DNA of 64,000 nucleotides, taken from contig JBAZZT010000004.1 in assembly GCA_041658705.1 (NCBI GenBank), positions 30,758-94,757 on the forward strand. Reading direction: 5' to 3'. Positions within the stretch are counted from its first letter, which is position 1, and the number at the start of each line of letters is the position of its first letter. This document shows, piece after piece, positions 1-62,372 of this stretch. This DNA is from Patescibacteria group bacterium. Lineage in GTDB: Bacteria > Patescibacteriota > Patescibacteriia > 2-12-FULL-60-25. A model generated the notes under the pieces. The model was given only the letters and a program-made list of their open reading frames with translations. It made no database searches and was not told the DNA's origin. The position numbers and the translations under genes are program-made.

Positions 1-2881
1 GACGTCGCTGTTGCGTGCTTTCGGTTACTCGACCAACGAAGAGATCTCCGAGATCTTCACCACCACCGACATCCATCCCCTGAACCACTACATCGAATCG
101 ACCTTGGGCAAAGACGCGGCGGCCAACGAAGACGAAGGTCTGATCGAAGTCTATAAGCGGATAAGGCCGGGCGACCTGGCTACGGCCGACAACGCCAAAT
201 CGCTCATCCATTCGATGTTCTTCAAGTTCGAGCGCTATGACTTGGGAGCAGTGGGTCGTTACAAATTCAACCAACGTTTCGGTTTGCCGGTCGTGGAGGC
301 GGAAGTGGCCAAGGAAGAGAATCGCATCCTGACCAAAGAGGATTTGGTCATGATCCTGAAGGAAATCATCCGTCTCAACAACATGCAGGAAGAGGCGGAC
401 GACGTGGATCACCTGGGCAACCGCCGCGTGCGCGCCATCGGCGAATTGGCGCAGAGCCGTTTCCGCATCGGACTCGCGCGCATGGAGCGCATCGTCAAAG
501 ACCGCATGTCGACGCAGGACATCACGGCGTTGACCCCGGCCAAACTCATCAACGCGCGGCCGGTCATCGGCGCAGTGCGCGAGTTCTTCATGAGCTCGCA
601 ATTGTCGCAGTTCATGGACCAGACCAATCCGCTGGCTGAACTCGAACATCGCCGCCGCCTTTCGGCCATGGGCCCGGGCGGTCTGTCGCGTGAGCGCGCC
701 GGTTTCGACGTACGCGACGTGCATCGCACCCACTACGGACGCATCTGCCCCATCGCTTCGTCCGAAGGTCCGAACATCGGTCTGGTCGGCCACATGGCGT
801 GCTATGCGCGCATCAATGATTTCGGTTTCATCGAGACGCCTTATCGCAAGGTCAAGAACTGGGCGCAGAACGACGGCAAGGACGGCGTGGACGAGGTCTT
901 GCGCGTGGACATCTCCAACGGCAAGGGCGAGAGCGTGGCTAAGGCAGGGGATGAGATAGATTCCAAGCTCGCCGCCAAACTCAAAAAAGAAGTCTCGTTC
1001 GAAAAGCTGCCCATCGTGCCGCATGTGACGGGCGAGATCGTTTATCTGAATGCTTTCGCCGAAGAGCGCAGCACCGCGGCTCCGGCCACCACCCCGGTGG
1101 GACGCGACGGTAAATTTTTAGTCGAACGCACCCCGGCGCGCAAAAACGGCGAGCCGATGATCGTGGACGTGTACGAAATCGATTACCTGGACGTTTCATC
1201 CAAGCAGATTTTGTCCATCGCGACTTCGCTCATCCCGTTCGTCGAACATGACGACGGCCAGCGCGCGCTCATGGGCACCAACATGCAACGCCAAGCCGTG
1301 CCCTGCATCAAACCGGATGCACCGATCGTGGGCACGGGCGTCGAACGCCGCGCGGCGGTCGATGCCGGCCACGCCATCCTGGCGCCGGAAGACGGCACTG
1401 TGGCTTCGGTCTCGGCCAAGCACATCGAATTCAAATCCGACGCGGGCGAAACGCGCCGCTATGACCTGATCAAATTCCAGCGCTCCAACGCCTCGACTTG
1501 CAACAACCAGCGGCCGCGCGTGGACAAGGGACAAAAAGTCTACGCTGGCGAAGTCCTGGCCGACGGCACGTCGTGCGACAGGGGAGAGATGGCGCTGGGC
1601 CAAAACCTGTTGGTCGCCTTCCTGTCGTGGGACGGCTATAACTATGAAGACGCCATTATCCTGTCCGAACGTCTGGTGCAGCAGGACCGCTTCACTTCGA
1701 TCCACATCGAACACCATTCCATCGACGTGCGCGACACCAAACTCGGCCCCGAAGTCGTGACCTCCGACATCCCGAACGTGTCCGAAGAAAAACTCAAGAA
1801 CCTGGATGAAAACGGCGTGGTGCGCATCGGCGCGGAAGTCAAATCCGGCGACATCCTGGTCGGTAAGATCACGCCCAAGGGCGAGACCGATTTGTCGGCC
1901 GAGGAAAAACTGCTGCGCGCCATCTTCGGCGAGAAAGCGCGCGACGTGCGCGACACCTCGATGTATCTGGAACACGGCGAACACGGCAAAGTCGTGGGCG
2001 TGACCGTGTTCTCGCGCGAGGACGGCGACAAGCTGCAGCCTGGAGTCATCAAACAGATCGTGGTCTCGGTCGCGGACCTGCGCAAGATCCAAGTCGGCGA
2101 CAAGCTGGCCGGCCGCCACGGCAACAAAGGCGTCATCTCCAAGGTCGTGCCGGTCGAAGATATGCCTTTCCTCGAGGACGGCACGCCGGTCGACGTCATC
2201 CTGTCGCCGTTGGGCGTCGTCTCGCGTATGAACTTGGGACAGATCCTGGAGACGCATTTGGGTTTGGCCGCCAACGCGCAAGGTTATCGCGTGGCCACTC
2301 CGGTCTTCGACGGCGTATCCGAGGAGACCATCCGCCAAGAGCTCGTGAAAGCGGGCTTCAGCGAAGACGGCAAAGTGCCGCTCTACGACGGACGCTCGGG
2401 CGAACGCTACGACAACGATCCTACGGTCGGCTACACCTATATACTCAAACTGAACCACATGGTGGAAGACAAGATCCACCAGCGCTCGATCGGCCCGTAC
2501 TCGCTCATCACGCAACAGCCGTTGGGCGGCAAGGCGCAATCCGGAGGTCAGCGCTTCGGCGAGATGGAAGTCTGGGCGCTTGAGGCGTACGGCGCCGCGC
2601 ACATGCTGCAGGAGATTCTCACCATCAAATCAGACGACGTGCCGGGCCGTTCCAAAGCTTACGAATCCATCATCAAGGGCGAACCGATCCGCAAAGTCAA
2701 CGTGCCGGAATCCTTCAACGTGCTCATCCGCGAACTCAAGGGCCTGTGCCTCGACGTGGAACTCTTGAAGGAGGGTCATCGCATCGAAGAGACTTCGCCT
2801 AAACCGGAGCAGTTCAAACCGCGCCCGGCTTTGACTAATTCATTCGCCGACGCGGACTGGGGTCCGGCCGAACAAGCCTAA
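1..2881 (+). CDS. rpoB: DNA-directed RNA polymerase subunit beta, C-terminal part (5' end lies upstream of the window)
   Basis: Reading frame is open to the window edge. Conserved beta motifs are present: [50 protein letters not shown]. rpoC follows 12 nt later. Confidence 0.97.
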
Positions 2882-2893
2882 ACGACCACCCAT

Positions 2894-6844
<3,951 letters not shown>

Positions 6845-6845
6845 G

Positions 6846-6962
6846 GTAGGGGCGCATGGTTATGCGCCCTGACGGTAGACGGTAGCCAATGTAGGGGCGC
6901 ATGCCATGCGCCCAGACGGTCGACGATAGCCAAATGTAGGGGCGCGGTTTCCGCGCCCCTTT
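6846..6962. repeat. Cluster of three REP-like palindromes (GTAGGGGCG..N..CGCCCCTAC family) with GGCTACCGTC spacers
   Basis: gtaggggcgcatggttatgcgccc, gtaggggcgcatgccatgcgccc and gtaggggcgcggtttccgcgcccc lie directly after the rpoC stop. A near-identical composite recurs at 51115..51207. Confidence 0.85.
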
Positions 6963-6967
6963 GGGTA

Positions 6968-7007
6968 TAAAAAAAGAAACCCGCCAGAGCCTGGGAGACG
7001 TGGCGGG
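6968..7007 (-). terminator. Rho-independent terminator of CDS 7035..7493
   Basis: On the minus strand: cccgcca..tggcggg stem followed by tttcttttttt. Confidence 0.6.
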
Positions 7008-7034
7008 TCAATTGGACGAAGGCGGTCGAAAGAT

Positions 7035-7493
7035 CTAGGCGGCTGCCTTTTTGAGTTTGACCTCGAAGGCTCTGGCGAGGGCGAGCACGGCTTTTCCCCA
7101 CCGATTGTTCTTCTTGAGAGGCATGAGATAGGCGGAAGCCTCTTTCTTGCCGGCGGCGACCTCTGCCTTCATCTCATCGCTCTGCTTCACGATCTCCTGA
7201 ACGATGAGCGCGATAGCCTCCTTCTCGGAGCCATCGCAGTGTACGACCAGTCGCTTGCACATGGCCAAGTAGTCCTCGAATGAGCTTTCGAAATAGTCGG
7301 CGTAGGCTTCGTCCGTGGGTGTTCTGTTACCGTGGCCTAAGCCGGCCGCCATCGCGACAAGGTTGCAAGTGATCGCGTCGAGACCTTTGGCGGACTTTGG
7401 ATGCTCCCGAAATCCCAAAGGGTGAGCGAAGCCTCGGAGATCGTACTGGGTCATGACGATTGCTCGATCGATATTCGCGGTGAGAAAGTCCAT
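7035..7493 (-). CDS. Hypothetical protein (152 aa)
   Basis: Clean ORF with an AAGGA Shine-Dalgarno-like site upstream and its own terminator. No family recognised. Confidence 0.55.
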   Translation of the reverse strand: MDFLTANIDRAIVMTQYDLRGFAHPLGFREHPKSAKGLDAITCNLVAMAAGLGHGNRTPTDEAYADYFESSFEDYLAMCKRLVVHCDGSEKEAIALIVQEIVKQSDEMKAEVAAGKKEASAYLMPLKKNNRWGKAVLALARAFEVKLKKAAA

Positions 7494-7588
7494 TTCTCTA
7501 TCCTTTCGTGTCGTTTCCTGCCCAGACAGCGTATCTGGGTTTCGGGAAATATTACTTATTTAGTCAGATATGTCAAGCAGCGACGGGT

Positions 7589-7615
7589 ATAAAAAAAGAC
7601 GTCCCTGGGGGACGC
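7589..7615 (-). terminator. Rho-independent terminator of CDS 7681..8151
   Basis: On the minus strand: gcgtccc..gggacg stem followed by tcttttttta. Confidence 0.55.
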
Positions 7616-7680
7616 CTTTCAACAGAGTCTTGGCATGATGATCATCACAGCCTCCTGGTTAAAGGTTCACTGCATTCGGT

Positions 7681-8151
7681 TCACTCCGGAATTTCGACCT
7701 TGGGGTCGTGACGCCGGAACGCGCGGAGCAAGAATCGTTCGCGTTTGATGAGCGGGCAGTGCGGCAACAAGTCGCGGATCCGGAACATGCGCCAGATGAA
7801 CGCCTTGGCCGTCTTGTCCGTCACATCCTTGAAACGGTGCGCTTTTTCGACCACGAGTCCGATGGAGGATGGATCGTTGAAGAGCAGCGCGCGGGCGACT
7901 TGGCCGAACGAGTAGATGTCACGGGCTTGATCCAGGTCGCGCGGTGAGACGTGATCCGGGACAAAGTCATGGCTCTCGTTCAACGTCTCCACCTCCTTCT
8001 GCAACTTGACCCGTTCGATATCACGTTCGTCCACCAGCCCGCGTTCCGCGAGCTGTTCGGCCAAGGTCTTCCTCGGTCCGGTTTGAGGTTTGGCTTGGGC
8101 TTTCGAAGCCAAGCCGCGTGCCGCCAGTTGTTCCGCCAGGGTTTTGTTCAC
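7681..8151 (-). CDS. Hypothetical protein (156 aa) with a duplicated N-terminal TLAEQLAxRGL motif
   Basis: GTG start preceded by AAGGAG. The repeat TLAEQLAARGL / TLAEQLAERGLV is weakly reminiscent of DUF2058/YaiL N-termini. The family call is not secure. Confidence 0.55.
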   Translation of the reverse strand: MNKTLAEQLAARGLASKAQAKPQTGPRKTLAEQLAERGLVDERDIERVKLQKEVETLNESHDFVPDHVSPRDLDQARDIYSFGQVARALLFNDPSSIGLVVEKAHRFKDVTDKTAKAFIWRMFRIRDLLPHCPLIKRERFLLRAFRRHDPKVEIPE

Positions 8152-8240
8152 TCTCGACGCTCCTTTGGTGAAAGCACTTGGAATGTGCGGATTGACTGGA
8201 GAATATACACCAAAACAGCAGTCTTGTCAATTCCGAGGGG

Positions 8241-8310
8241 AGTAGTTAGCAGTTAGCATTTAGTAGTTAAAGCTAGGACCCTAACTACTATCTACTAAAT
8301 GCTAACTACT
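8241..8310. repeat. Low-complexity word hairpin (AGTAG/TTAGC words)
   Basis: agtagttagcagttagcatttagtagttaa .. taactactatctactaaatgctaactact forms imperfect inverted arms in a divergent intergenic region. Confidence 0.7.
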
Positions 8311-8434
8311 TGTTTATAAGAAAAGTCCCCCTAACGCCGCTTTTGTCAAGACCCACCAGGTGAGGTATAAAGAGTTCGAAACAGCAGGTTCATGAAGTTT
8401 TAAGCTTTAAGTTTTGAGTTTTGAACTAGCTCCT

Positions 8435-9160
8435 ATGTCTCGGCATTCAAAATGGTCCAAAGTCAAACAGTTCAAAGGTGCTGTCGATGCCAAGCGTTCG
8501 GCGTCGTTCACCAAGCTGGCGCGCGAGATCACGGTCGCGGCGCGCGAAAAAGGACCTGACCCGAGCATGAACGTGCGGTTGCGCGTGGCCATGGACCGGG
8601 CGCGCAAAGCCTCCATGCCAAAAGACGCCATCGAGCGGGCGGTGGTGCGGGGAGCGGGGACGGGCGCGGACGCGGCGATCATCGAGTCGTTGACTTACGA
8701 AGCGTATGCCCCGGGCGGGACCGCGCTGGTCGTCGAGTGTCTGACTGACAACCGCAACCGTTCGGCTAACGACGTGAAGCACGCCTTATCCAAACACGAA
8801 GCCAACCTGGCGAGCCAAGGTTCGGTCACTTATCTGTTCGACAAAAAAGCGGTGGTCAAGATTCAGGGCGGATTGCCCGCGGACAAGCGCGACGAGATGG
8901 AGCTAGCGCTCATCGATGTCGGAGCTGAAGACATCGAAGACGTCGACGGGACGACCGAAGTCAGGGGAGCGCCGGCGGATCTATCTAAACTCGCCGATGC
9001 GGCGCAAAAACTCGGGCTCACGCTCGAATCGGCCGAGTTCGAATGGATACCGAAGTCGCTGGTCGAGACGAATGAAGAAAACGGAACCAAAGTCGCGGAG
9101 CTGATCGATGAATTGGAGAACCTCGACGATGTCGCGCATGTTTATTCTAATTTGGCGTAG
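8435..9160 (+). CDS. yebC: YebC/PmpR-family transcriptional regulator (TACO1 family)
   Basis: Family-typical N-terminus MSRHSKWSKVKQFKG. ATG at 8435 is preferred over the upstream TTG at 8414. Confidence 0.9.
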   Translation: MSRHSKWSKVKQFKGAVDAKRSASFTKLAREITVAAREKGPDPSMNVRLRVAMDRARKASMPKDAIERAVVRGAGTGADAAIIESLTYEAYAPGGTALVVECLTDNRNRSANDVKHALSKHEANLASQGSVTYLFDKKAVVKIQGGLPADKRDEMELALIDVGAEDIEDVDGTTEVRGAPADLSKLADAAQKLGLTLESAEFEWIPKSLVETNEENGTKVAELIDELENLDDVAHVYSNLA

Positions 9161-9214
9161 GGGCGTGTGCCACACGCCCCTGGTCGGACAGGGCGCATAA
9201 CCATGCGCCCCTAC
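9157..9214. repeat. Two REP-like palindromes overlapping the yebC stop codon
   Basis: gtaggggcgtgtgccacacgcccc contains the TAG stop. agggcgcataaccatgcgcccctac ends 6 nt before the ruvC ATG. Confidence 0.8.
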
Positions 9215-9220
9215 AAAATA

Positions 9221-9712
9221 ATGGCAACACCTCTACGCGTCCTTGGTGTCGATCCGGGCTTTGGTCGGACGGGGTTTGGCGTCATCGAGCAGCAGGGGAG
9301 CGAAGTCACGTGGCTGGCGCACGGCTGCGTCGAGACGGAAAGCAAGATGGAATTCGAGGATCGTTTGGCGGCGATCAAGCAAAAACTCACGCAGGTGATC
9401 CAAGAGCACCGACCCGATTGCATGTCGCTCGAACATCTGTATTTCCAAACCAACGTAAAAACCGCCATGAAAGTCGGCATGGCGCGCGGCGTCATCATGC
9501 TCATCGCGCAGGAAAATAATCTGCCCATCGTCGAGCTTACGCCCAACCAGGTCAAACAAGGCATCACGGGATACGGCAGCGCGGACAAAAAGCAGGTGCA
9601 AGCCATGGTGCAAAGATTTTTGCATCTGAAAGACATCCCGCAACCCGACGACGCAGCAGACGCCCTAGCCATCGCCATCGTCGGTGGCGCGGTGTATAAG
9701 CAGGGGAAATAA
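9221..9712 (+). CDS. ruvC: Crossover junction endodeoxyribonuclease RuvC
   Basis: RVLGVDPGFGRTGFGVIE and the C-terminal DDAADALAIAI catalytic region. ATG 9221 is preferred because the upstream part of the ORF is REP sequence. Confidence 0.9.
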   Translation: MATPLRVLGVDPGFGRTGFGVIEQQGSEVTWLAHGCVETESKMEFEDRLAAIKQKLTQVIQEHRPDCMSLEHLYFQTNVKTAMKVGMARGVIMLIAQENNLPIVELTPNQVKQGITGYGSADKKQVQAMVQRFLHLKDIPQPDDAADALAIAIVGGAVYKQGK

Positions 9713-9724
9713 CCAATAAACAAT

Positions 9725-9788
9725 CTAGGTTCTAGGTTCTGGGTGCTAGGTGCTAGGTTCAGAAACCTAGAACCTAGAACCTGTTTTT
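9725..9788. repeat. Word hairpin (CTAGGT words) followed by a T-run; probable ruvC terminator
   Basis: ctaggttctaggttc...gaacctagaacctagaacc followed by tgttttt. The same words occur at 48900..48954. Confidence 0.7.
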
Positions 9789-9831
9789 CAGATTTGATTC
9801 CGCGGCTTCATTAGCATAAACTGCGGATAGC

Positions 9832-10875
9832 ATGAGCCTCAACCCCTTCGAAACCTCCAAAACCAAAATAGTCCCTGAACCAGTCGAAGGGCTACCTAGT
9901 ACCTCCGGTATCCGCCGCCAGGATTTGCCGACCCACGTCAGGAAGTACGCGGATAAACTCGCTGCGCAGATTAAAGAGATCTACGCCAAATACGGAGCCA
10001 AGAATTTCGAAGAGCTTAAAGAGAACAAGAAACTGTCTGCGCAAGATGCGCGTAAAGTTGCGGATCTGTTCAAAGCCTTCCAGAAAGCTGTCGAGAAGAA
10101 CGAGATTGAATCGGTCAGCCCGCAGGAAGCTATTGAAATCCTGGGTCGCGAGAACGTCCATGGCATCGAGGACGTCGAAGCCATGCTAGGACAAGGTTTC
10201 GTCGACATCTCTAAAGTCCCATCAATCCCGTACACTGCAGACGATTTGAATAAATCCAATGAGATAAAAGAAAAAACCGGCGTCGAAGAGATGCTTGTCC
10301 TCTTTGTCGCGGATGAAGACGGCAAACCTCTCACCGGAGAACGCATGAATGAACTCATCCAAGCGGAATATGACAAGCTCGGCCTAGGCAAATTCCTACT
10401 TAATACCGATTGGTATAAGAACAAGGACCTCTTCACGAAACTAGGCTTGAACTACGAATGGAAGCTCATCACCAAACAAACCATCCCTGGTTCAAAGAAC
10501 AAACGTCATCACTACGAACCAGGCGACCGCTTCACCCACCAAGACACCCAAGAGTTCGTCATCGAGGAATACGCCAAGCAACTCGATATCCCGCGCAATC
10601 AACTGCATCGCCCAGAGCCCTTCCAGATGCTTTATGCTACCGCTCTTCACTTGATTACGACCGAACGTCTTGATGGTCAGGGCAAAGGTGAACGCTTCCT
10701 CAAGAATGAATATCACTGGTCTGATGTTCGCTCCTCGGATGGGAACCTCGTGTATGTCGGCTCTGCCGATTCGGTTGGCGCGGACGTGGACAGGACCTCC
10801 CGTGACGTTGGGAATGGTTTTTTCGGTGTCTGCCTTTCGCGTGAGCCTTTTTCTACCAAATCCTTGAACACTTGA
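9832..10875 (+). CDS. Paralog A of a 3-member family; putative DGR-type variable protein with a C-type-lectin/FGE-like C-terminus
   Basis: 347 aa, highly similar to 10898..11908 and 41110..42150 except for the last roughly 45 codons. No signal peptide. Confidence 0.85.
   Translation: MSLNPFETSKTKIVPEPVEGLPSTSGIRRQDLPTHVRKYADKLAAQIKEIYAKYGAKNFEELKENKKLSAQDARKVADLFKAFQKAVEKNEIESVSPQEAIEILGRENVHGIEDVEAMLGQGFVDISKVPSIPYTADDLNKSNEIKEKTGVEEMLVLFVADEDGKPLTGERMNELIQAEYDKLGLGKFLLNTDWYKNKDLFTKLGLNYEWKLITKQTIPGSKNKRHHYEPGDRFTHQDTQEFVIEEYAKQLDIPRNQLHRPEPFQMLYATALHLITTERLDGQGKGERFLKNEYHWSDVRSSDGNLVYVGSADSVGADVDRTSRDVGNGFFGVCLSREPFSTKSLNT
10729..10875 (+). other. VR-like hypervariable block 1 (3' end of paralog A)
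   Basis: Aligns codon-for-codon with the TR-like element 42440..42586. Amino-acid differences fall on the template's AAC/AAT/GAC/CAC codons. Confidence 0.65.
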
Positions 10876-10897
10876 CCCTTCGTCCCTGAACAAAGCC

Positions 10898-11908
10898 ATG
10901 CCCACCAACCCCTTCGAAACCGCCCCGAATCTCACCACCTCCCACATCCGTCGGCAGGATTTGCCGACTCACGTCAGGCGCTACGCCGATAAACTCGCGG
11001 CGCAGATAAGAGAAATCTACGCCAAATACGGAGCCAAGAACTTCGAAGAGCTTAAAGAGAACAAGAAGCTGTCGGCGCAAGACGCACGCAAGGTGGCTGA
11101 TTTGTTCAAAGCCTTCAATGATGCAGTCGAGAAGAAAGAGGTCGAACCTGGGTTACAGGAAGCCATCGAAATCCTAGGTCGCGAAAACGTCCACGGCATC
11201 GAAGACGTAGAAGTCATGCTGGGGGATGGTTTTGTGGACGAATCAAAAGTCCCACCCATCCCATACACTCCTGAAGAGCTTGAGAAATCCAAAGAAATCA
11301 AAGAAAAGACCGGCGTCGAAGAGATGTTTGTCTTATTCGTCGCTGACAAGGACGGCAGACCGCTCACGGGAGAGCGCATGAACGAGCTCATCCAAGCTGA
11401 ATACACCAAGCTCGGGTTGGGCAAATTCCTGCTCAACACCGATTGGTACAAGAATGAGGACTTTTTTAAGAAGTTGGGTTTGAGCTACGAATGGAAACTC
11501 ATCACCAAACAAACCATCCCTGGTTCGAAGAACAAGCGTCATCACTACGAACCTGGAGACACCTTCACCCACCAAGACACCCAAGAATTCTCTATCGAGG
11601 AATACGCCGAGAAACTCGATATCCCTCGTGACCAGTTACAGCGCCCAGAGCCTTTCCAAATGCTCTATGCGGTTGCCCTTCATTTGATCGCGACGGAACG
11701 CCTCAACGGCAAGGGTAAAGGTGAACGCATCCTCGCAAAAGAGTATCACTGGTCCGATGTCCGCTCCTCGCATGGGAGCCTCGTGCGCGTGGGCGGCCAT
11801 GCCGATTCGGACGGCGCGCACGTGCACAGGAACCACCGTGGCGTTCAGGGCCTCGATCTCGACGTTTGTCTCTCGCGTGAATCTTCTTCCAAATCCTTGG
11901 ACACTTGA
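10898..11908 (+). CDS. Paralog B of the same family
   Basis: 336 aa, tandem to paralog A across a 22-nt gap, with the same conserved body and a divergent C-terminal block. Confidence 0.85.
   Translation: MPTNPFETAPNLTTSHIRRQDLPTHVRRYADKLAAQIREIYAKYGAKNFEELKENKKLSAQDARKVADLFKAFNDAVEKKEVEPGLQEAIEILGRENVHGIEDVEVMLGDGFVDESKVPPIPYTPEELEKSKEIKEKTGVEEMFVLFVADKDGRPLTGERMNELIQAEYTKLGLGKFLLNTDWYKNEDFFKKLGLSYEWKLITKQTIPGSKNKRHHYEPGDTFTHQDTQEFSIEEYAEKLDIPRDQLQRPEPFQMLYAVALHLIATERLNGKGKGERILAKEYHWSDVRSSHGSLVRVGGHADSDGAHVHRNHRGVQGLDLDVCLSRESSSKSLDT
11762..11908 (+). other. VR-like hypervariable block 2 (3' end of paralog B)
   Basis: Same anchors (cgctcctcg ... tcgcgtga). Relative to the TR-like element it carries one extra codon and one missing codon. 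Confidence 0.55.
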
Positions 11909-14295: not shown

Positions 14296-14383
14296 AAAAA
14301 TTACAAATTAAAAATTATGAATTACAAATGTCGAAATCAGGATTGCTCCGGTATTACAATTTGTAATTTTTAATTTGTAATTG
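14296..14383. repeat. Word hairpin (ATTACAAAT words) ending 5 nt before a start codon
   Basis: aaaaattacaaattaaaaattatgaattacaaatg .. attacaatttgtaatttttaatttgtaattg. Same family as 42737..42809 and 49420..49491. Confidence 0.8.
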
Positions 14384-29076: not shown

Positions 29077-32000
29077 ATGCTTCCCGCGTGGCTGTCCAAA
29101 AATAAAAACAAGTTCGTCCTCGGAGGACTGACCCTCGTCCTGGCCTTGGGTACGGTCATCGTGGCCTATCCGAAGAAAGCGGAAGCGAGTTTGTTGCAGG
29201 CTGATCCGAACGCGGCTATCGCGGCTCGGGCGCAACTTTGCGGCTACGTGACCGGTGCCGGCACTTCTCCGGGCGCGACTTCGATCATCGGCTTGATGCC
29301 GGAATGCCATTATTACGAAATCTACAAGGCCAAGGTGGACATGATCCAATCCACCATCCAGTTCGGAGTGGTGCGGGCTTTGCTCGGCGCGCTGCAATAC
29401 GGCACGCAGATGATCGCCCAACAGACGGCGCAGTGGATTCTCGAAGGCGCGCACGGTAAACCGTCATTCTGGACCATGAACTGGGGAGAATTCCTGGCCA
29501 ACGTGGGCGAGGACGCGGTCAACCGGTTCATCGGCGAACTGGATAAGACCATGCAGGGTTGGGGCTTGGGCAGCTTGTGTACGCCCATGTCGCTCAACAT
29601 GCGTTTGGCTTTGTACATCAAGCCCATCGTGCCGCAGGCCTTTCAAGGTTGCGACTGGGCCAAGATGAAGGGCGCGTTCAACCAGACAAAAAATACTTTT
29701 TCGCCCACCGAAATCGCGGCAAATTTGCGCAAGTCGGTCCAGCCCGGAGGCAACCAGATCGATATGATGCTCAAGGTGAACAGCGAAATCCTGGTGAACA
29801 AGGAGGCGGCGGAGAAGTGGTATGAAAAACAACGTATTGAGACGCGCGGCTTCAAATCGATCACCGATTTGATCAGCGGCAAGATCAAGACGCCGGCCGA
29901 AGTCGTGGACGAGACGGTGCGCCAATCCAACGTGGTCAAGCTGCAACATGACGTGACCACGGCGGACATCAATGCGCTGGCCATGGCCGCGTTCTGGGCT
30001 GGGTTCGAACAGTTGCCGCAAGTCGCTGCCTCGCAATTCCTGAACACCTTGGCCGTGGGCGCATTGCAGAAGTTTTTCACTTGGATTTTCGGCGGCATGA
30101 CGGGCGGCGACGAGACTTGGTATAATCTCGATTTATCCGATCCATTCGCGCAACGCAGTGCGCAACCCAAGACCGACGCATTGCAAAAAGCCTTTTCGGA
30201 CATGATCATCCCTGATCTGTTCACCAATAAAGACGAAGATTTCGTATTTGAGATGACGTCTTGCGTCGAAGGCAGCCGCTCATATTGGGGTTGCAGCATG
30301 GACGAAGGGTTGGCTCAAGCGCTGCGGGCCTCGGCGGAAAGCGGGGCTTATACCGTGGCGCGTGCAGCCGGCATCGGCGGCACCGGAGCGAGCGAATATC
30401 TGCACAAAGATTGGGAGCTGATTCCCGAAAGCGAAGTCAAGGATAACCAGGATTCGGGTTGCTACCAGCGCGCCTACTGCGCCTCGAACCTGGCCAAGCT
30501 GCGCTTTGCGCGCATCATCCCGTTGGGCTGGGAGCTCGCCGCCAATTCACCTTTCAACGTAAAAGCCAACGGCAGATATGTCACCTTGGGCCAGGTCGTC
30601 GCGGGTTTCAACTCCTGCAACGCCCAAGGACAAGTCGACGCCGAGCATCCGTGGTGCCATCTTATCAATCCCGCTTGGGTGCTTACGGCGCCGCCTTTCA
30701 AATGCCAACTCAAAGGCTATGGTACGACCCTGGCCGCGCCGGACACGCCGATGCGCCAGCAAGAATGCAGCGACCTGGTCTCCTGCTTGAAGCGCGATGA
30801 CAAGGGCAAGTGCTTGGGCCAATACGGATCATGCTTATCCGAAAAGACGGTGTGGCGTTTTGGCGCCGACTCGTGCGACCAGAAGTTCGTGAGTTGCCGC
30901 ACCTACCAGTCGCGCGCCACCGGCGCACACCAAGGCCAGAACGTATCCTATATAAGGAATACCATAGATTACGGATCGTGCAACCAGGATAACGTGGGTT
31001 GCCTGTATTATGCGACGACGCGCGACGTCACGACGACGAGCACCGAGCGCTGGGTGGCCACGACGCTCGAAGTCAAAAACAAGAAGGGCGCATTGGCCGG
31101 TTATGACATCCGCCAGATGCCGCGCGTGTATTTTGATGCCACGGTGCAGGCTTGCGATGCGTCGTCCGATGGTTGCACCAAAGTGCAGCGCGTCAATCCC
31201 GGCAGTCCGGCGTTCAACCTCGTGCGCAACGGTTCCTTCGAGGACAATTTGGACAACCTGCCGGACAAACTCGTGGCTTGGTTCGACGACAACGATAACC
31301 CGGTCGGACAGAAACCGTTCAACCCGGCGACGGGTCCGGCTTACCAAAGCGGCCAAGCGAGCTACTACAACGCCACGACGCACCAGCCCGTCACTCTTTA
31401 TCCCTACCGCCCCTACGTCTTGTCTTTTTACGCTCGTGCCGACGGGGGAGCCGCTCCCGACGTGCAGGTATTTTTGGATCTGTATCAGGCACCGAACAAG
31501 CCGGTCGTTACAACGGGTCCGGCGGTCTACCGCAGTTCCAATTGCAGCAAAAAAACCCAGACTTCAGTCGGTTTGAGCAGCTTCAAACCGGGCAACGATT
31601 GGCAGCGTTATACCTGCGAGTTCAGTTCCAACCCGGATGTGCGTTTGGGCGTGCTGAAGATATCCGTCAAGAACGCGGCGCTGGATGACGTGCAGCTTGA
31701 GGAGGCTGATCGCGCGACGGATTACATCGATGGCGCAGCGGACAATCTTCCGGTCGAACATATCAAACTGCCGCCGGAGGAATTGGGTTGCAAGGGCGAT
31801 GCCAAGACAGACCGCAAAGAGTGCGCGGATTATGCGCTCATGTGCCAAGCCACTGAAGCCGGCTGCCAGGGTTGGAGCGACGCGGGGGATGCGAGCGGAA
31901 TCGAAATCCCGGCCATCGTCTCGCCGCTTGATCGCTGTCCCAAGAGCTGCGTGGGTTACGCGGAGTATCGCAAATTGCCCTCGGCTTTCGATCTGGTCAA

Positions 32001-35000
32001 CACAGGCAACCCCACTGATCCGCAGAATGATTCCGCTGACGACACCGCGGCTTCCTTCGTGCCGAGCAAAGCCCAAGCTTGCAGCGCCGACGAAGCGGGT
32101 TGCGAAGAGCTGACTAATCTTGAAGCTTCGGCGCAAGGTGGCGAATCAAAACTTTTCTTGAGCTATGCGCGGGCTTGTAGCAAACCGGGTGACGATGCCA
32201 AGACCTTCTTCACCTGGGAGGGTTCGGAGGAGACGGGTTATCAATTGCGCACCTGGAGTTTAGTCAAAGAGCTTAACGCGGAGGGTCCGAAAATCCTGCT
32301 CAAAGCCGGTCCGGACGGCGTGCTCAAGGATCCGCAAGCCTGCACTGCCGCGACGTGGTCAGCCAAGACCGATTTGGATTGTCGTCAATTCTACGACGAG
32401 ACGGGCAAGGACTATTACCGTTATTATTCGCAAACCATCATCTCGAGCGTGGACTGCCGCGATTACCGCAAGAACAATTCGACTTCGGACGATTGCACCA
32501 AGACGAGCGGCGACCCGAATAACTACAATCCGACCAACAAAGCCTGCATCTATCACGTGCTGGCGAGCTTGAGCAACCAGTGCAAGGAAACCAACGCGGG
32601 CTGTCGCGGCTACCTGGGCACGACCGGGCGCAACACCGCGACCGTGTTGCACGAGACTTTCGCCGCCGCGACAAGCTCGCTTTTCTACGCGCCGAACAAT
32701 CAAAAGATCAAGATTTCAAACGAGGCGTTGCTGGTCGGCGATCATTCGCTGCAGATCCAAGCCAGCGACGCCAGCGTGGATTTCACTTCAGCCACCGGCA
32801 GCTTGTACACCGTGAGCTTCTGGCTCAAGACGACCAAAGCGGGGAGTGCACCGGCCAGCTTGAAACTGGGCAACACGGTCGTGGGTACGTTCAGCCTGGT
32901 GCCCGACTGGAAACGCTTCGAGGTCGGACCGTTCAAGGCCGTCGGCACCAAATCAAAGTTGACTTGGAGCGGTTTGCCCGATCCGTCCTACCTGGACGAA
33001 GTCGCGGTGGTCCGTTTGCAGGACGTGGTTTACGTCAAAAAAGATTCGTGGGTCATCCCGCCCGAGTGCGACCAGACTGCCGAAGGCATCCCGCAGCCGC
33101 GCGCCATGTTGGGCTGCCGTGAATACAAGAATCGCGCGGGCAAAGTCGAGGACGTGCGGCAATTTTCGCGCCTGTGCCGCTACGCCAGCATCGGCTGTAC
33201 CGCTTACGTCGACACACGCAACTCCGACAGTCCCTATGCCGAGACTTTCAAGCTCACCGGGCTGAACGTGCCGGATCCGAACAATCCCGCGAGCAAACTG
33301 TGGGATACGCTGTACGCGGGCGATTCAGTCGTCACTCGGCTGGCGGACCGCTATGTCTATGCGGTCGACGAGCCGGGCGTGCATTGCGCCGCCGACCAAG
33401 CTTCGTGCCGCGCGTTCGGCAAACCCACCTTCGATCCCACGGGTGCGCCATCCAGCACCTTCGAGACGGTTTATCTCAAAGACGACATCACGCAATATAT
33501 GGATGCGGGCGGCGAACCCAAGGCCTTGTGCCGACCCAAGGAACTTTTCTGCGATAAATTCACCAGCGGACAAGTCACCTCGTATTTTCGCGATCCGCTG
33601 AATCACGTCTGCGAATGGCAAGATAAAGTGGCGCTCAATAAATTCCCTGGACTGCCCGACGGCGAATATTCCGGTTGGTTCGTGATCGGCGCCGCAGTAC
33701 CCACGCCGTGTTATCCCGAAAAGATCTCGAGCGGCAATACCTTTTTGAGCGAATATTCCGGCACGCCTAATTACCGTGGTTGGACGGACACTTGCCCGGT
33801 CGAACAGTCGGAGTGCACCGAATATCGCGATTCCAACGATCACACCGACCTGGAACACCCGCAGGGCAAACCGTATTATTTCGTCGACAACAACCGGCTG
33901 GATAAAGCTTCGTGCCAAGGCAAAGTAGATCTGCTTTCCGGCTGCGTGCTGTTCCGCGACATGAACGACAGCCGCCTGACCTACAGCACCGACGCGACCT
34001 ATGCCAAGTCGCACGCGGACGGCGACGTATCCGTCGCACCAATCAATTGCAGTACCGATGCTGACAATCCGGCTTGCCAAAAAGTCGGATACTGCGTTAA
34101 CCAAAGATTCAAGATCTGGAGCAATACGAAGCAAGCCTACACGGGAGAGTCGTCGGACATGACGCAAATCCAAGAAACCAAGAAGCATATAAATGATAAA
34201 TGTACGACCGACAAAGATTGTTCGGTGACGGCGTCGGCCGTCGGTCCGTTGGCTGACGAATATCGTATTACCGGAACTTGCCAAGCCAATGACTCCAACC
34301 TGCTCGTCAAGGTAAAACTCGATCGCGATTGCCAGACCTGGCTCGGTTGCGCCAGCGGCGAGACCGTCTACGATCCGGTGCAGCAGAAGTACAAAGATTT
34401 ATGTACCGAACTCGCGACGTGCGACAAGGCGGGCGGGACGGGCAACCAATTCTGCTCGCATTACGTAGACCGTGTCAGCGCGCCGTCCGGCGTCGGTTTT
34501 CAGGAAAAAGTCATGCGTCAGGGCGCCTTCGTGGATTCCACGCTCTACGCTTCGCGTTCGGTCGGCTTCGGCGATCCGGATTATTCCAGCTTCAGCTTGC
34601 CGTACCATTTCCAAATCGCCGATCTGCAGAACCGGGCCGTGGGCTTTGAGCTCCTCGCGAACCATGCCGGTAAGGTGCGCAACAGTTACTCCGACGACTT
34701 CCGCCTGACCGCGGCCGTGCCCTTGGCGTTTGGCGGTTTTAACGCCCTCGATCCCTATGCCGCGGACATCATCAAAGACAATTTATATCCTTACCTAAAC
34801 CTGTGCCGCCATCGCCAGACCAAGGCCGTGGGTTATTATTTGGCCGACCCTGGGGATACGGCTATCCCGCGCAAACCAACGGAAAAAGTACCGCGCTGTT
34901 ATTTGGCGATTGACCGACCATATACCCAAGTCGCCTCCGACCTCCAAGGTTCGGGCGTCAACCCGCGCAACGCGCAGAATTTGGCTGATGTGTTCGAGCA

Positions 35001-38000
35001 GTCGGGCAACGTCAAGGCCAACCAACAACTTACCCAAGCCTTCCCTAATTCAGAATGCCGCTCATATCCCGAGACCAATTCTCCGTTCGACGCGCGCTTC
35101 GTCAAAGATTGGAATCTGGATGCCGAACCGCCCACGCCGCTGAATCTCGTCGAAGGTTACGCTGGCGTGCCGACTTGTGAGTACGGCGAAAATTGCGATT
35201 GCAGCTATCAAAAAGTCAATTACGCCAACCGTTCCAAATATTACGCGGCGTACGGCGCATCTTTCCCGCCCGGCGTGTGCCAGGGCGGTGATAAGGACGG
35301 GCAGGCTTGTCGTCCCAACGAGGGAAGCGGAGCCGTTGCGCTCACTCTTGCGCCGACGAGCACCGCAGGCGGCAGTGAAATCCCGGACATGAACCTGTGC
35401 ACCGGCGGCGGCTCTTGCGTGCCTGTGCAATCCTACAGCTTGATCCGTGGCATCGCCGGACAATGTTTGCAGCGCGACAATGCGCGCACCCTGGGCGGCG
35501 CCAAGGAATACAATCCTTGCTTGGTGTGGAATCCCGCGCCGGTGTTGTTCGGCAAAGATGACATCTACCATTATTATCCGACGGCCGGCTATCTGCCGCC
35601 TGCCGAATCAGGGGAGTACTACTGCGTCTCGGATGCGCGCGAGCCCCGCAGCTTCAAAACCAGCGTGGAAAACAACATCATGGGTTGGAATTGGTTCGAT
35701 AAAGATAATCCGCTGGTCTTGATCCAGAAAAATCTTGATACCTCCATCATCGCCGAACCACCGGGCAAGATGACGGCATTCTGGTTCGATGAATGTTTCA
35801 GCATGGATCCGGGCGGCGCCTCGGACAGCGACCTGCCCTTAGGTTGGTCCGGCATGCCCGGGTTTACGGGCAGCGGCAACGACGACGACTTCTACGAAAG
35901 AGCTTGTGGCTGGGGACACGCCTCGATCGACGGGACCAACGCGCGCGGCACGGATTCCGGAGCGAGTTGCGCTTGGGTCAGGACGCAGAATTCCGGCGCC
36001 AACATGGCGGCTGATTTTACGGCCGGCCGTTGGGTGACGACCGGACAGGGCGTGAGCCGGAACTACGCGGAATATTTCGTGCCCATCAATGGCAAGTATT
36101 GGGCCAAGTGGCTTTTGCAAAGCAAGACGGATCCGGGGGAAGTCGACATCAAGAACGCGCTGCTCGAAAAGAATTTCAGCTATTTCGACTTCAAGCCGCT
36201 CTACAAGACGGGCGCCGGCGGCGGAGCGTGCTCCTTGAGCGGCTGGTGGGCGGATGAGTTCCCGTTGGAGGGGACTGCCGCCGGCGTGGACAAGGGGCAG
36301 AACCAACTGATCAAGAACATCATGGCCGAGTGGAGCAAACTGACGTCGCAAAAATCCGATTTCGTGCGCAACCAAAAAGGCGAGCTCATCAAACTGCCGT
36401 GCTTATACAACGACAAGAACACGCAGGATGAGTCGGCCGACGATTATTGCTACTACAAATTCTGGCAAGCGGATTTTCGTGGCCAAGGCGCCAAAAAATT
36501 CCAGATGATGGATGATGACTTCGGCGGCGCGCACAAACTTTCCGCCCCGGACGTGCTCTACATGGAATCAGACGGTTCCAAGCCGTTCTTCTCGATCCGC
36601 GCCATGTTTGAGGACGCTTCGCTGACGGACAACGCCATCAAGGAAGAGGACATCAAAGGCAACAGCGGCAAACTGGGCGGCCCCTTCCGCTTCGTGGGTT
36701 GGTGGGTCACGGCCTCGTTCCCCGGCGCCAGCAACAACCGCTACATCTACATGACGCTCGATATCGGCCACGCCGACATCTGCAAAGAGGTGGCGCGCGT
36801 CAGGTCCTCGGTCAACGGCGACAGCGTGGCGTTCACGGATCGCGTTTGGGACGGATCAGGCTTTAGCCTGCCGCTCCTGGGTTATCTGTACGGCGAGACG
36901 AATGCACCGTTCGGTTCGGCGCGGCACACACGTGAGATCGGCATGGAGCCGCTGTTCCAAGTCAAAGACAAGAAAGTCGCCGCCAACTTCCGCATGAGCG
37001 TGGCGAAGCCGACTTTCATTTCCGCCGGCGCCAAATTTTTCCGCTTGGGTGAGTTGCCCAAAGCCAATTGGGCCTGGCTCTCCAACCTGTTCGCCAAAAT
37101 CTACAACGTCTACCGCTATTACGATTTGCCCGTCGACAAGTCCTCCTACGCCTGCGTGAGCGGGCCGCAGTTCGGCAAACGCTGCTCGCCGGATCCGCTT
37201 TCGAGCCAAAGCACCTGCGGCTGGCAGGGCACCTGCAACCCGACCCTGCTCCAAGTGGATGCGGGAAGCGCTTTCTGCAACTCGCTGTCCGGAGTGAACG
37301 CCGGCCAAGCCTGCGGCGCCGGCGGAGGCAGCGGACTCGGCAGCTATCATGTATGCCACGCTGCGCCTTTGCGTAACGTTGGCGGACAGCTCGCGCCGCA
37401 ATATGCGCCGTGCCAGGTGGATTCCGCGCTGTGGAGCACTAATAATGATCATTATACCTACACAGGCACGGCCAGTTCCGATCCGTTCAATGCTGTGACC
37501 GTGCAACATTGCATAGACGCCAAATCCACAAACTGCATTAACCTCACGCGAGCCACGGCGGCCCAGGCCGGAGCCTTCAAGTGCGCCAACAACGCCGTGC
37601 ATTTCCCCGACGGAACCCGCGCCTGGTGCCGCAAACCCAGCGGCGGCAATGCTTCGACGGATTGTCCGATTGAAGTGCACGGTGATTGCGATGGCACGGC
37701 AGGGCATTGCGCACCCGGCTGGCGCGACGGAACGTACCAGGCTCAAACCGGAGGATACGAATACGTCAAATGCAGCAATAAGGATTCGGATTCCGCATGT
37801 TCATTCACCTGGCAGAACTGGTGGTACAACGATATGAAGAGGGCTTCGGGTTTTCCTGAAAAGCCCATGCCTTACCCGGATGAACACGCCATCGTTGCAC
37901 AAGTGCAACACGCTGAAGGCGCGTTCTTCAACGTCCAAGTCGATCCCATCAACGGCAGTTACCCGATCAACACCAACTATCCGGTGAACGGTTGGGTGCC

Positions 38001-41109: not shown

Positions 41110-42150
41110 ATGCCCGCCAACCCCTTCGAAACCCCTAAAAGTAAAATAGCCCCTGAACCTGTCGAAGGGCTACCTTATACTTCCGGGATTCGTCGGCAGG
41201 ATTTGCCGACCCACGTCAGGCGCTACGCCGATAAACTCGCTGCGCAGATAAAAGAAATCTACGCCAAATACGGAGCCGCTAACTTCGAGCAGTTAAAAGA
41301 GAACAAGAAGCTATCAGCTCAAGACGCACGCAAGGTGGCTGATTTGTTCAAAGCCTTTCAGAAAGCCATCGAGACTAAAGACGTTGAACTAGACCTCGAA
41401 GAAGCCATCGAAATCCTGGACCGCGAGAATGTCCACGGCGTTGAGGACGTCGAAGCCATGCTAGGCGAAGGTTTCGTCGATATCTCCAAAGTCCCACCCA
41501 TCCCATACACTCCTGAAGACCTAGCCAAATCCAAAGAGATCAAAGAGAAGACTGGCGTCGAAGAGATGCTCATCCTCTTCGTCGCTGACAAGGACGGAAC
41601 GCTACTCACGGGAGAACGCATGAACGGACTCATCCAAGCTGAATACACCAAGCTCGGCCTGGGTAAATTCCTGTTCAACACCGACTCATATAAGAACGAG
41701 GACTTCTTCAAGAAGCTGGGCTTTAACTACGAATGGAAGCTCATCTCCAAACAGACCATCCCCGATTCAAAGAACAAGCGCCATCATCACGAACCAGGAG
41801 ACAGCTTCACGCATCAAGACACCCAAGAGTTCGCCATCGAGGAATACGCGAAGAAACTTGATATTCCACGTGACCAATTACATCGTCCAGAGCCGTTCCA
41901 GATGCTCTACGCCACCGCTCTCCATCTGATTGCGACCGAACGCCTCAATGGCCAGGGCAAAGGCGAACGCATCCTCGTAAACGAGTATCACTGGTCTGAT
42001 GTTCTTTCCTCGGATGGGAGCTCTGTGCTCGTCGGCTATGCCGATGCGGACGGCGCGCGCGTGAGCGGGAGCTCCCGTGTCGCTCGGCTTGGTGGTCTGG
42101 GGGTGGGTCTTTCGCGTGAGCCTTTTTCTTCCAAATCCTTGGACACTTGA
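41110..42150 (+). CDS. Paralog C of the variable-protein family, adjacent to the TR-like element
   Basis: 346 aa. Same conserved body as 9832..10875 and 10898..11908, with a divergent C-terminal block. Confidence 0.85.
   Translation: MPANPFETPKSKIAPEPVEGLPYTSGIRRQDLPTHVRRYADKLAAQIKEIYAKYGAANFEQLKENKKLSAQDARKVADLFKAFQKAIETKDVELDLEEAIEILDRENVHGVEDVEAMLGEGFVDISKVPPIPYTPEDLAKSKEIKEKTGVEEMLILFVADKDGTLLTGERMNGLIQAEYTKLGLGKFLFNTDSYKNEDFFKKLGFNYEWKLISKQTIPDSKNKRHHHEPGDSFTHQDTQEFAIEEYAKKLDIPRDQLHRPEPFQMLYATALHLIATERLNGQGKGERILVNEYHWSDVLSSDGSSVLVGYADADGARVSGSSRVARLGGLGVGLSREPFSSKSLDT
42004..42150 (+). other. VR-like hypervariable block 3 (3' end of paralog C)
   Basis: Same length as the TR-like element. 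By hand count, 18 of 26 template adenines are substituted versus 14 of 91 other positions over 39 codons. Confidence 0.65.
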
Positions 42151-42175
42151 TACTTGACCCTTGGACCCTTAATTT

Positions 42176-42203
42176 TTGTTTTCGAATTTTTTTTTGGTAG
42201 AAT
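42176..42203 (+). promoter_or_regulatory. Candidate promoter (TTGTTT, 16-nt spacer, extended -10 TGgTAGAAT) for the TR-containing transcript
   Basis: ttgttt tcgaattttttttt tgg tagaat. Confidence 0.45.
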
Positions 42204-42439
42204 AATCACAGGTCATCCCGCTGCGGTGCGGCGGAATGTGCGGTCGGCAACGGTCGCATGGCTGTTGCACTCCTCGATTAAGGTCGCGGGGTCGCCTGCC
42301 TAATAAAAGAAGCTCACTGCTTGTCCTGTCCTGAAGCGGACTCTGACGGGGTCAGAGAGCGGCCGCTGCGTGATCATACAATGGGAACCGCCGGGATTTG
42401 GTCGAACCCATGCTGCCCAAGATGGGACAGGACAACAGA

Positions 42440-42586
42440 CGCTCCTCGGATGGGAACTTTGTGAACGTCGGCAACGCCGATTCGGACGGGGCGAACGTGA
42501 ACAGGAATTCCCACGACAATCGGAACGACAATCTCGGCGTTTGTCTTTCGCGTGAGTCTTTTTCTTCCAAATTCTTGGACACCTAA
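42440..42586 (+). repeat. Template-repeat (TR)-like copy of the paralogs' C-terminal block, Asn/AAY-rich
   Basis: Conceptual translation RSSDGNFVNVGNADSDGANVNRNSHDNRNDNLGVCLSRESFSSKFLDT. It has 9 Asn codons (AAC/AAT) among the 26 codons from GNF to DNL, exactly where the three VR blocks vary. Homology to the paralogs starts abruptly at cgctcctcgg. Confidence 0.65.
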
Positions 42587-42703
42587 CTCTTGAAGTTTGG
42601 ATTTTAGCATCAGCCTTTTTTCATCCGTCGATTTGGGGCTCATCTTGCATCGGACAAGCCTCGAACTTGACTTTTTTACCACCTTACTCTATTCTATGCG
42701 CAT

Positions 42704-42736: not shown

Positions 42737-42809
42737 CAATTACAAATGCCAAATGCCAAATTACAAATTATCCGTCAATTTGGCATTCGTAATTTGTAAT
42801 TTGTAATTG
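42737..42809. repeat. Word hairpin (ATTACAAAT/GCCAAAT words) ending 5 nt before the nusA ATG
   Basis: caattacaaatgccaaatgccaaattacaaatta .. aatttggcattcgtaatttgtaatttgtaattg. Confidence 0.85.
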
Positions 42810-42814
42810 TATAT

Positions 42815-49126: not shown

Positions 49127-49420
49127 ATGAAACTACGTCCGCTGGGTGACAGGGTGATCGTCAAAGCCCTACCCAAAGAAGAAGTGACCAAGACCGGGAT
49201 TATCCTGCCGGAAACGGTCGATAAGGAACGTCCGGAACAGGGTGAGGTCATCGCCGTGGGTCCGGGTCGTCTTTTGGATTCAGGTTCGCGCGCCGCGATG
49301 AACCTCAAAGTCGGCGACAAAGTCGTGTTCAAGAAATATTCGCCGGATGAGGTCAAGATCGAGGAAGTCGATTATCTCGTCATCGCCGAGTCCGACGTGA
49401 TGGCAGTGATAGAAAATTAA
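49127..49420 (+). CDS. groES: Co-chaperonin GroES
   Basis: MKLRPLGDRVIVK..GEVIAVGPG. Confidence 0.96.
   Translation: MKLRPLGDRVIVKALPKEEVTKTGIILPETVDKERPEQGEVIAVGPGRLLDSGSRAAMNLKVGDKVVFKKYSPDEVKIEEVDYLVIAESDVMAVIEN

Positions 49421-60866: not shown

Positions 60867-62372
<1,506 letters not shown>

Follow-up and report, generated by a model that had tools for sequence, protein, structure and literature searches.

The DNA analysed here, referred to as the window, is a 64,000-nt stretch from a Patescibacteria group bacterium (GenBank assembly GCA_041658705.1, contig JBAZZT010000004.1, positions 30,758 to 94,757 of the forward strand). Within it we studied three paralogous genes, P1, P2 and P3, whose variable 3' ends resemble those of the targets of diversity-generating retroelements (DGRs). 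DGRs are especially common in bacteria belonging to the candidate phyla radiation (CPR). No other natural machinery that hypermutates proteins in a targeted way is known to us from prokaryotes, and we know of almost nothing that has been established about the targets of CPR DGRs. A first-pass annotation, made from the sequence alone, had described three such genes as identical in their bodies and hypervariable in a C-terminal block, and had proposed that they encode DGR target proteins with a C-type lectin (CLec) or FGE fold.

Three paralogous genes and a template repeat

All three open reading frames (ORFs) are present on the plus strand. P1 (9832-10875) encodes a 347-aa protein, which corresponds to WC641_03365 (MFA4954324.1) and is 100% identical to P0007. 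It is followed in tandem by P2 (10898-11908; 336 aa; WC641_03360), and the third paralog, P3, is located at 41110-42150 (346 aa; WC641_03270, MFA4954305.1). Each protein is made up of an N-terminal module of ~90 aa, a core domain of ~250 aa and a C-terminal variable region (VR) of 35 codons. The bodies are not identical as first described, since the genes share 77-81% nucleotide identity pairwise and the proteins 84-86% identity over residues 25-298. The concentration of variation in the C-terminal block was confirmed: protein identity falls to 46-54% within residues 299-333 and is 75-92% for the tail of 13 residues, and divergence along the genes is not uniform. Similarly, in 40 paralogs the columns of the body have an entropy of 0.1-0.9 bits and those of the C-terminal block one of 1.5-2.3 bits. 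This concentration is real, strongly non-random and far beyond chance. With a dN/dS of ~0.11 in the body and synonymous sites near saturation (dS ~0.9-1.2), P1-P3 are old paralogs under purifying selection.

The exact positions of the VRs were obtained by alignment to the template described below and are 10729-10839 for VR1 (P1), 11762-11875 for VR2 (P2) and 42004-42114 for VR3 (P3), all on the plus strand. They lie in the C-terminal block to which the variability had first been assigned, with starts slightly 5' of the ranges given at the time. The VR covers codons 299-335 of 346, near the 3' end of the ORF, and is followed by a conserved tail of 12-13 codons, which is a putative element similar to the initiation of mutagenic homing (IMH) site. 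Relative to the template and the other VRs, VR2 carries an in-frame 3-nt insertion, GGG, at positions 11791-11793.

A gene-less, Asn-rich copy of the variable block is found 290 nt downstream of P3, at 42440-42550 on the plus strand. It is contained in an annotated 62-aa ORF, WC641_03265 (42398-42586), which translates as SSDGNFVNVGNADSDGANVNRNSHDNRNDNLGVCLSRESFSSKFLDT, and its adenines span 42450-42531. When the three VRs are compared with this copy, 13/25 adenine and 15/86 non-adenine positions are mismatched in VR1, 14/25 and 13/86 in VR2, and 18/25 and 14/86 in VR3, to which the copy is adjacent. Taken together, 45 of 75 adenine cells differ as opposed to 42 of 258 non-adenine cells (odds ratio 7.7, Fisher p = 6e-13). 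Among 40 full-length homologues, nine columns exceed 2.7 bits with 10-14 residue types each, and these are exactly the nine AAY codons of the copy (residues 304, 307, 310, 317, 319, 321, 325, 327 and 329 in P3 numbering). In the 40 paralogs, its GAY codons vary to D/G/V and its AGG codons to R/G/W. Pairwise identity among 29 genes drops from 0.81 in the body to 0.75 at non-adenine and 0.34 at adenine sites of the VR. As read from these alignments, the pattern is the signature of adenine-directed DGR mutagenesis. Because the variability of the VRs follows the adenines of the copy at 42440-42550, this copy is a template repeat (TR), which we refer to as TR_win.

Retroelement cassettes and a template module without a reverse transcriptase

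No reverse transcriptase (RT) or Avd gene was found in the window, either by Pfam searches on ~35 ORFs or by tblastn with the RT and Avd of L003, one of the distant contigs discussed below. The same genome is represented in other assemblies: P1 and P2 match WC641_03365 and WC641_03360 of the metagenome-assembled genome (MAG) GCA_041648195.1 at 100% identity, and positions 32410-52586 of the window are identical to the European Nucleotide Archive contig k141_569370. The first-pass annotation had counted three family members, all of which exist; the genome holds at least 23 full or partial paralogs and one 81-aa fragment (~24 copies), plus the gene-less fourth copy in the window at 42440-42586. 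With ~1,460 genes in the genome, as estimated from locus tags reaching ~07300, the ~24 copies amount to ~1.6% of the genes.

A search with the TR peptide led to a second TR ORF, WC641_03515, at a locus (L030) where the RT genes are also found. The order there is a partial paralog (WC641_03520), a non-coding domain, the second TR (TR_A), bAvd on the minus strand, RT, leuS, a UDP-glucose dehydrogenase gene and a further cassette. The first of these units, comprising target, TR, bAvd and RT (WC641_03510-03520), is referred to as cassette A. TR_A and the adjacent VR differ at 18 of 24 adenine and 2 of 84 other positions and are a textbook pair. Two ORFs of the locus match RVT_1 (1396-2385 and 8962-10017), with the motifs LGNLTSQLFANIYL and YCDDF. 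The bAvd proteins (PF22296) were recognized with E = 1.2e-15 for cassette A, on a frameshift-corrected ORF, and E = 3.5e-16 for cassette B. A G9 homopolymer at ~1371-1379 of the locus, just past the ATG of the cassette A avd gene, puts its frame out of register in this assembly; it is an error of sequencing or assembly or else an on/off tract prone to slippage. Cassette B (6999-10017) is a second complete DGR, 5 kb from cassette A and with its own bAvd and RT; it has an unrelated target of 268-354 aa, and its TR and VR show 20 mismatches in 132 nt, all of them at TR adenines. The full complement of a DGR, that is, a DGR-type RT, an adjacent bAvd and a TR/VR pair differing nearly only at adenines, is therefore present in this genome.

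The protein accessions run from 304 (TR_win ORF) and 305 (P3) through 323 (P2) and 324 (P1) to 352 (TR_A ORF) and 353 (the contig-end paralog) in their last digits, and in the sister MAG WC892 all these genes are on a single contig of 121,414 bp. As NCBI accessions follow contig order, cassette A is located on the window's contig, 28 protein genes past P1 and outside the window.

The core domain is present in many CPR DGR cassettes, and a profile of the core family recovered 714 clusters at 50% identity among 1.84 billion representative proteins, many of them fusions of 600-1000 aa. On four unrelated Patescibacteria contigs (L003, L004, L005 and L029), homologues with 28-31% identity are part of complete cassettes, in the order CobT-like vWA protein, 135-aa ORF, AAA_5::target fusion, standalone target of 330-347 aa, ~270 nt of conserved non-coding sequence, TR, bAvd (PF22296, on the opposite strand) and RT (RVT_1). 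The TRs of these cassettes have 75-80% nucleotide identity to TR_win. In two of them (L003 5134-10810 and L029 243-5881), the target domain is encoded in a conserved operon in which an AAA_5 (MoxR-like) ATPase is fused to a second copy of the target domain. Such an arrangement hints at an ATPase/vWA machine with a diversified specificity subunit. The proposal that P1-P3 encode DGR target proteins with a C-terminal VR is thus strongly supported by the TR in the window, the adenine-specific variation, the cassette in the same genome and the homologues in canonical cassettes.

TR_win is part of a block of ~500 nt (42160-42659, plus strand), which consists of a promoter-like site, a non-coding RNA domain, the TR, a target-type tail and ~70 nt more. 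The block is absent from a related strain, L011, in which ~42159 is joined straight to ~42659 with flanks of 88% and 94% identity; CTTGAC micro-repeats at this junction bound the block. At its start, an extended -10-like sequence, TGGTAGAAT (42195-42203, plus strand), can be read upstream of the non-coding domain. It is kept in both other copies in the same genome, at L006 and L030, and was not flagged by a promoter consensus scan. The non-coding domain itself (42210-42439, plus strand) lies directly 5' of the TR and is conserved with the RT-bearing cassettes of distant genomes. It contains the invariant motif CACTGCTTGTC (42315-42325), which occurs once per TR-bearing locus, always on the same strand and upstream of the TR; in cassette B this motif is not present. 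An Rfam scan yielded no family over the TR-upstream element and matched only a 16S rRNA gene.

A long-range helix of 12 bp joins the arm TTGTCCTGTCCT (42321-42332, plus strand), which overlaps the 3' part of the CACTGCTTGTC motif, to the arm GGGACAGGACAA (42424-42435, plus strand), which ends 4 nt before the TR. These two arms are found in the window, L006 and L030. In L003, the sequence has changed to TTGTCCGCCATT with GATGGCGGACAA and complementarity is kept, L004, L005 and L029 carry G-U variants, and L025 has a third version. Overall, 94% of the cells are paired and 6 of the 12 pairs show compensatory changes, a result matched by 0 of 500 shuffles and to be compared with 35-60% pairing in slid controls, although the paired fraction is biased upward by the choice of 3' arms by complementarity and few lineages are independent. 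The folding energy of the whole region is unremarkable (z = -1.3), and RNAalifold missed the long-range helix on a MAFFT alignment, in which the 3' arms are misaligned. The covariation-supported helix ties the conserved motif to the 5' edge of the TR.

TR_win and TR_A are distinguishable at 16 positions. These differences fall 2, 3 and 11 times of 37 on codon positions 1, 2 and 3 (p = 0.003), and all nine AAY codons are kept (9/9). This codon-like constraint on TR_win suggests that it has been maintained as would be expected of a template in use. TR_win is followed by a target-type 3' tail (42551-42586, plus strand), reading ..RESFSSKFLDT with a stop codon at 42584-42586. The cassette TR has no such tail and ends ..GTGTTTCG, followed by AAGTGA and a terminator-like hairpin. 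A further copy of the module is located after WC641_05835 (L006), with a TR that has lost adenines and gained a 1-nt insertion, so that the genome contains at least two TR copies without an RT. At L019 of another strain (5209-5444), the promoter-like site still stands behind a paralog, and so does the non-coding domain as far as the 3' helix arm; the TR is gone and the invariant motif is mutated from CACTG to CATTG. L019 is a further decay stage of the template module.

Present activity of the retroelement and status of P1-P3

Current activity was assessed by comparing the MAGs WC641 and WC892, which come from the same population. Between them, 19 of 23 paralogs, including P1, P2 and P3, are identical, and two further paralogs have a single body single-nucleotide polymorphism each. 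The cassette-adjacent target differs at 11 of 190 residues, all at AAY or GAY codons of TR_A. The other change affects a remote paralog on another contig (WC641_03025/WC892_02505), in which three residues differ; at the DNA level (L033 versus L035) there are 6 differences in 7,011 bp, all within 14 nt in codons 325-329. The WC892 allele, CGC CGG GTT GGT TAC, is a perfect adenine-only derivative of the TR_A sequence AAC CGG AAT GGT AAC and has a clean 41-nt run to TR_A from the 3' end, whereas the WC641 allele retains third-position mismatches. This tract is the product of fresh, short, 3'-anchored homing delivered in trans. Cassette A is active now on its adjacent target and acts at least occasionally in trans on a remote paralog. 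Separately, the same Thr/Ala difference in PIPYT[T/A]EDLEK splits the two MAGs in two paralogs (residue 135 in P0003/P0332 and residue 125 in P0024/P0334), which suggests gene conversion or cross-assembly between copies.

P1-P3 themselves are static. The VR of a non-adjacent live target must differ from a TR of the genome only at adenines (Wu et al. 2018, PMC5758913). P1-P3 depart from this despite their strong adenine bias: of 86 non-adenine sites 13-15 are mismatched to TR_win, and of 87 such sites 15-21 to TR_A, and the clean 3' runs against either TR reach 3-8 nt (5-8 nt for VR3). No VR-confined variation of P1-P3 was seen between WC641 and WC892, whereas the differences in WC641_03520 and WC641_03025 are confined to the VR. 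Where loci of different assemblies overlap, they are all 100% identical and gave no heterogeneity signal. The ongoing hypervariation that the first-pass annotation had implied is not supported for P1-P3, given their identity in two MAGs and their non-adenine mismatches to TR_win. Among 18 paralogs of the genome, identity at third codon positions is 0.67 for the body and 0.69 for the VR. As the two are nearly equal, the neutral sites of the VR are as old as the genes and have not been homogenised by a template. An apparently younger age of the VR than of the body, derived from dS by the Nei-Gojobori method (NG86), proved to be an artefact in the light of third-position identity and was withdrawn.

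The related strain L011 provides a longer time scale. Its gene at the P3 locus (2205-3257) is at least 93% identical to P1 in the 3' half including the VR, and this P1-like half is evidence of gene conversion between paralogs. The VR of this gene differs from VR1 at 2 of 25 adenine and 9 of 86 other positions (p = 1.0), with flanks that are 6-12% diverged. P1 thus shows no adenine-biased change in the VR relative to a diverged strain, which also speaks against hypervariation of this gene. L006 and other Ga0265292/6 loci had been considered as a sister genome; this was rejected, as they belong to the same genome and the comparison is one between paralogs.

One might ask whether gene conversion accounts for the whole pattern without any retroelement, the variable block being a surface loop under diversifying selection that is shuffled between copies, like antigenic-variation cassette families. 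Conversion is seen directly in the L011 gene, a subgroup of paralogs around P3 (P3, P0001, L010_7293 and L014) shares adenine-site codons in a mosaic pattern, and the 3-nt insertion in VR2 is of a type that DGRs do not make. On the other hand, base by base, the variability tracks the adenines of a gene-less template, the same genome contains template, bAvd and RT, and fresh changes restricted to adenine sites are seen at two loci. Conversion moves variants but cannot create the adenine pattern. It is refuted as the sole explanation, for which we see next to no chance, and stands as a secondary process. The insertion in VR2 in turn fits a long residence without rewriting, because DGR homing does not make 3-nt insertions.

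We therefore consider it very likely that P1-P3 belong to a ~24-member family whose VRs were randomised by a DGR of the same genome, that they are not rewritten at present, and that a template module without an RT lies just after P3. P1-P3 are former or very rare DGR targets and now fixed variants. In this reading, P1-P3 would once have been targets of the cassette A element, and TR_win would be usable in trans, formerly or still. The process could work as follows. An RNA carrying the TR would be reverse-transcribed by an RT-bAvd complex that misreads adenines, and the cDNA would then replace the VR, starting at the VR 3' end. Cassette A would rewrite its adjacent target now and reach remote paralogs occasionally, through short 3'-anchored tracts in trans. 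P1-P3 would be kept as fixed variants by purifying selection, with occasional shuffling by gene conversion between paralogs, and the second template module, consisting of the promoter-like site, the RNA domain and the TR without RT and Avd, would have been inserted just after P3. DGR-like variation between paralogs does not, in other words, imply present-day hypervariability.

Several observations weigh against this interpretation. The constraint on TR_win and its 9/9 AAY codons suggest use, yet no examined VR derives cleanly from it. The cassette avd gene is frameshifted in the G9 run in the one assembly seen. A MAG consensus reports the majority allele only, so that low-frequency variants of P1-P3 may exist, and the two MAGs may stem from closely linked samples. 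The P3 subgroup shares the 3' end of the VR and is near saturation at the upstream adenines, at a body divergence of 7.5-15%, a pattern not expected if homing were strictly 3'-anchored.

Alternatively, all ~24 paralogs, including P1-P3, could be live remote targets that the cassette RT rewrites often, with short tracts and several TR alleles (TR_A, TR_win and perhaps further copies) giving rise to the non-adenine mismatches. In favour of this, a short tract of the cassette TR has recently reached a remote paralog on another contig, TR_win has kept its AAY codons under codon-like constraint, and saturation at adenine sites is seen even at a body divergence between paralogs of only 7.5%. In addition, ~0.4 Mb of the ~1,460-gene genome were covered, and further TR copies may exist. 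Frequent rewriting is difficult to reconcile, however, with 19 of 23 paralogs being identical between MAGs while the adjacent target changed at 11 codons, with clean 3' runs of only 3-8 nt in P1-P3 against both TRs, with VR third positions that are as diverged as those of the body, and with a VR of P1 that is unchanged, as to adenine-biased substitution, across a strain split of ~6-12%. We regard it as improbable that P1-P3 are rewritten in this manner, and retain the reading of P1-P3 as fixed copies.

A more far-reaching version of this reading is that the genome runs a two-tier system, in which a hot RT-adjacent target is rewritten continuously, a library of ~23 copies is refreshed rarely, and satellite templates without an RT are used in trans. 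The library would be refreshed by short trans-homing tracts and gene conversion, and the satellite templates, each equipped with a promoter-like site and a conserved structured 5' RNA domain, would be under template-type selection and serve the single RT-Avd complex. We put this forward tentatively, as a possibility that we doubt more than we favour. If true, an ultra-small and probably episymbiotic bacterium would have an arrangement in the style of a repertoire, with TR RNA genes that propagate independently of the RT.

Protein architecture, neighbouring features and known systems

The CLec/FGE fold proposed in the first-pass annotation is only hinted at by modelling of the core domain. A full-length AlphaFold2 model was poor (pLDDT 56.7), and the Foldseek search with it was meaningless. 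For the core domain alone (residues 95-346 of P3), one of five models was good, with a pLDDT of 84.7 and a pTM of 0.86. In the PDB, this model matched the DGR variable protein TvpA (2Y3C) best and the FGE-like domains of EgtB and SenA next, but at E >= 0.56 and TM <= 0.32 (E = 0.56 and TM = 0.32 at best). No Pfam model matches the core domain, the BFVD library of viral structures contained nothing significant for the core model, and relaxed Pfam scans of 26 family members together with a sequence profile search of the PDB gave no FGE-sulfatase, DUF1566 or lectin match.

The N-terminal modules (9832-10101 in P1, 10898-11140 in P2 and 41110-41379 in P3, plus strand) follow the pattern NPFE..GIRRQDLPT.VR.YA..KKLSAQDARKVADL. 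The genome encodes this module in at least six further proteins (WC641_05535, 01500, 07180, 05490, 07240 and 04575), whose C-terminal domains are unrelated. By sequence, it matches nothing but ribosome-recycling factor and IF2_N, and these only weakly; one might speculate that it is a trafficking or docking module.

Other features of the window include an AT-rich palindromic element of ~75 nt (AATTACAAATGCCAAATGCCAAAT ... ATTTGGCATTCGTAATTTGTAATT) at 42738-42810, 49415-49491 and 14299-14383, each copy of which sits directly upstream of a start codon (those of nusA, groEL and the ORF at 14389). The repeat may be of an operator-like or MITE-like type (MITE, miniature inverted-repeat transposable element). 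Further short intergenic repeats, 90-94% identical to one another, are located at 6843-6964, 46148-46193 and 51129-51212. Just upstream of the P3 locus lies a giant Cys-rich ORF of 3,628 aa (29077-39963) with an N-terminal hydrophobic segment, which resembles the very large surface proteins of CPR bacteria and is a candidate for one. A complete bacterial 16S rRNA gene is present at 60867-62372 (Rfam RF00177, 1431 bits) and could serve to place the organism.

One small genome holds a working cassette, a trans-homing tract, frozen paralogs and templates without an RT at several stages of decay. It offers a natural system in which to study the choice of remote targets, the length of homing tracts and the fate of duplicated targets and templates.

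Individual parts of this arrangement are known from other bacteria. Cyanobacteria have DGRs whose variable proteins are remote and whose CLec paralogs are dispersed (Vallota-Eastman et al. 2020, PMC7517822), with 18 TR/VR-homologous loci in Trichodesmium erythraeum (PMC8867640) and targets that are mostly predicted to be cytosolic (PMC7517822, PMC8867640). The present system is similar in having one or two RT cassettes, many dispersed paralogs, a VR at the 3' end, graded TR/VR homology and recent in-genome duplication. It differs in the number of copies, ~24 in ~1,460 genes as compared with ~10 per multi-Mb genome in cyanobacteria, and in a core domain without a Pfam match, whose N-terminal partner is a lineage-specific module of ~90 aa and not a kinase or peptidase. 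In Thiohalocapsa PB-PSB1, each DGR class comprises one complete locus and 'degenerate' loci without an RT or other parts (Dore et al. 2024, PMC10907252). As in our case, there are RT-less loci, evidence for diversification in trans and locus turnover by recombination (PMC10907252). Decay there proceeds by transposons and MITEs, whereas here CTTGAC micro-repeats bound a block that carries the target 3' tail, and the Thiohalocapsa targets are NACHT/conflict-system sensors in a 7.95-Mb genome.

The DGR of Treponema denticola has seven non-adjacent targets (Wu et al. 2018, PMC5758913) and is likewise a cellular DGR acting on several remote paralogs; its TvpA (2Y3C) is also the best, non-significant, match to our core model. 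In contrast to P1-P3, with their 15-17% non-adenine mismatches, the Treponema targets are lipoproteins and their VRs differ only at adenines. A further comparison is with the DGRs of CPR/Patescibacteria, which form clade 2 (Roux et al. 2021, PMC8144416) and for which a 'CPR set' including targets with a P-loop NTPase upstream of the VR has been described (Wu et al. 2018, PMC5758913). Shared with this clade are the types of RT and bAvd, the phylum of the host, VR classes whose fold is unknown, and AAA_5::target fusions such as those of L003 and L029. The present genome differs in its family of 24 members, in having two complete DGRs and in at least two TR copies without an RT. The system is therefore of a known kind; what sets it apart is the size of the family relative to the genome, the presence of hot, occasionally refreshed and frozen copies side by side, and template modules that have no RT of their own.

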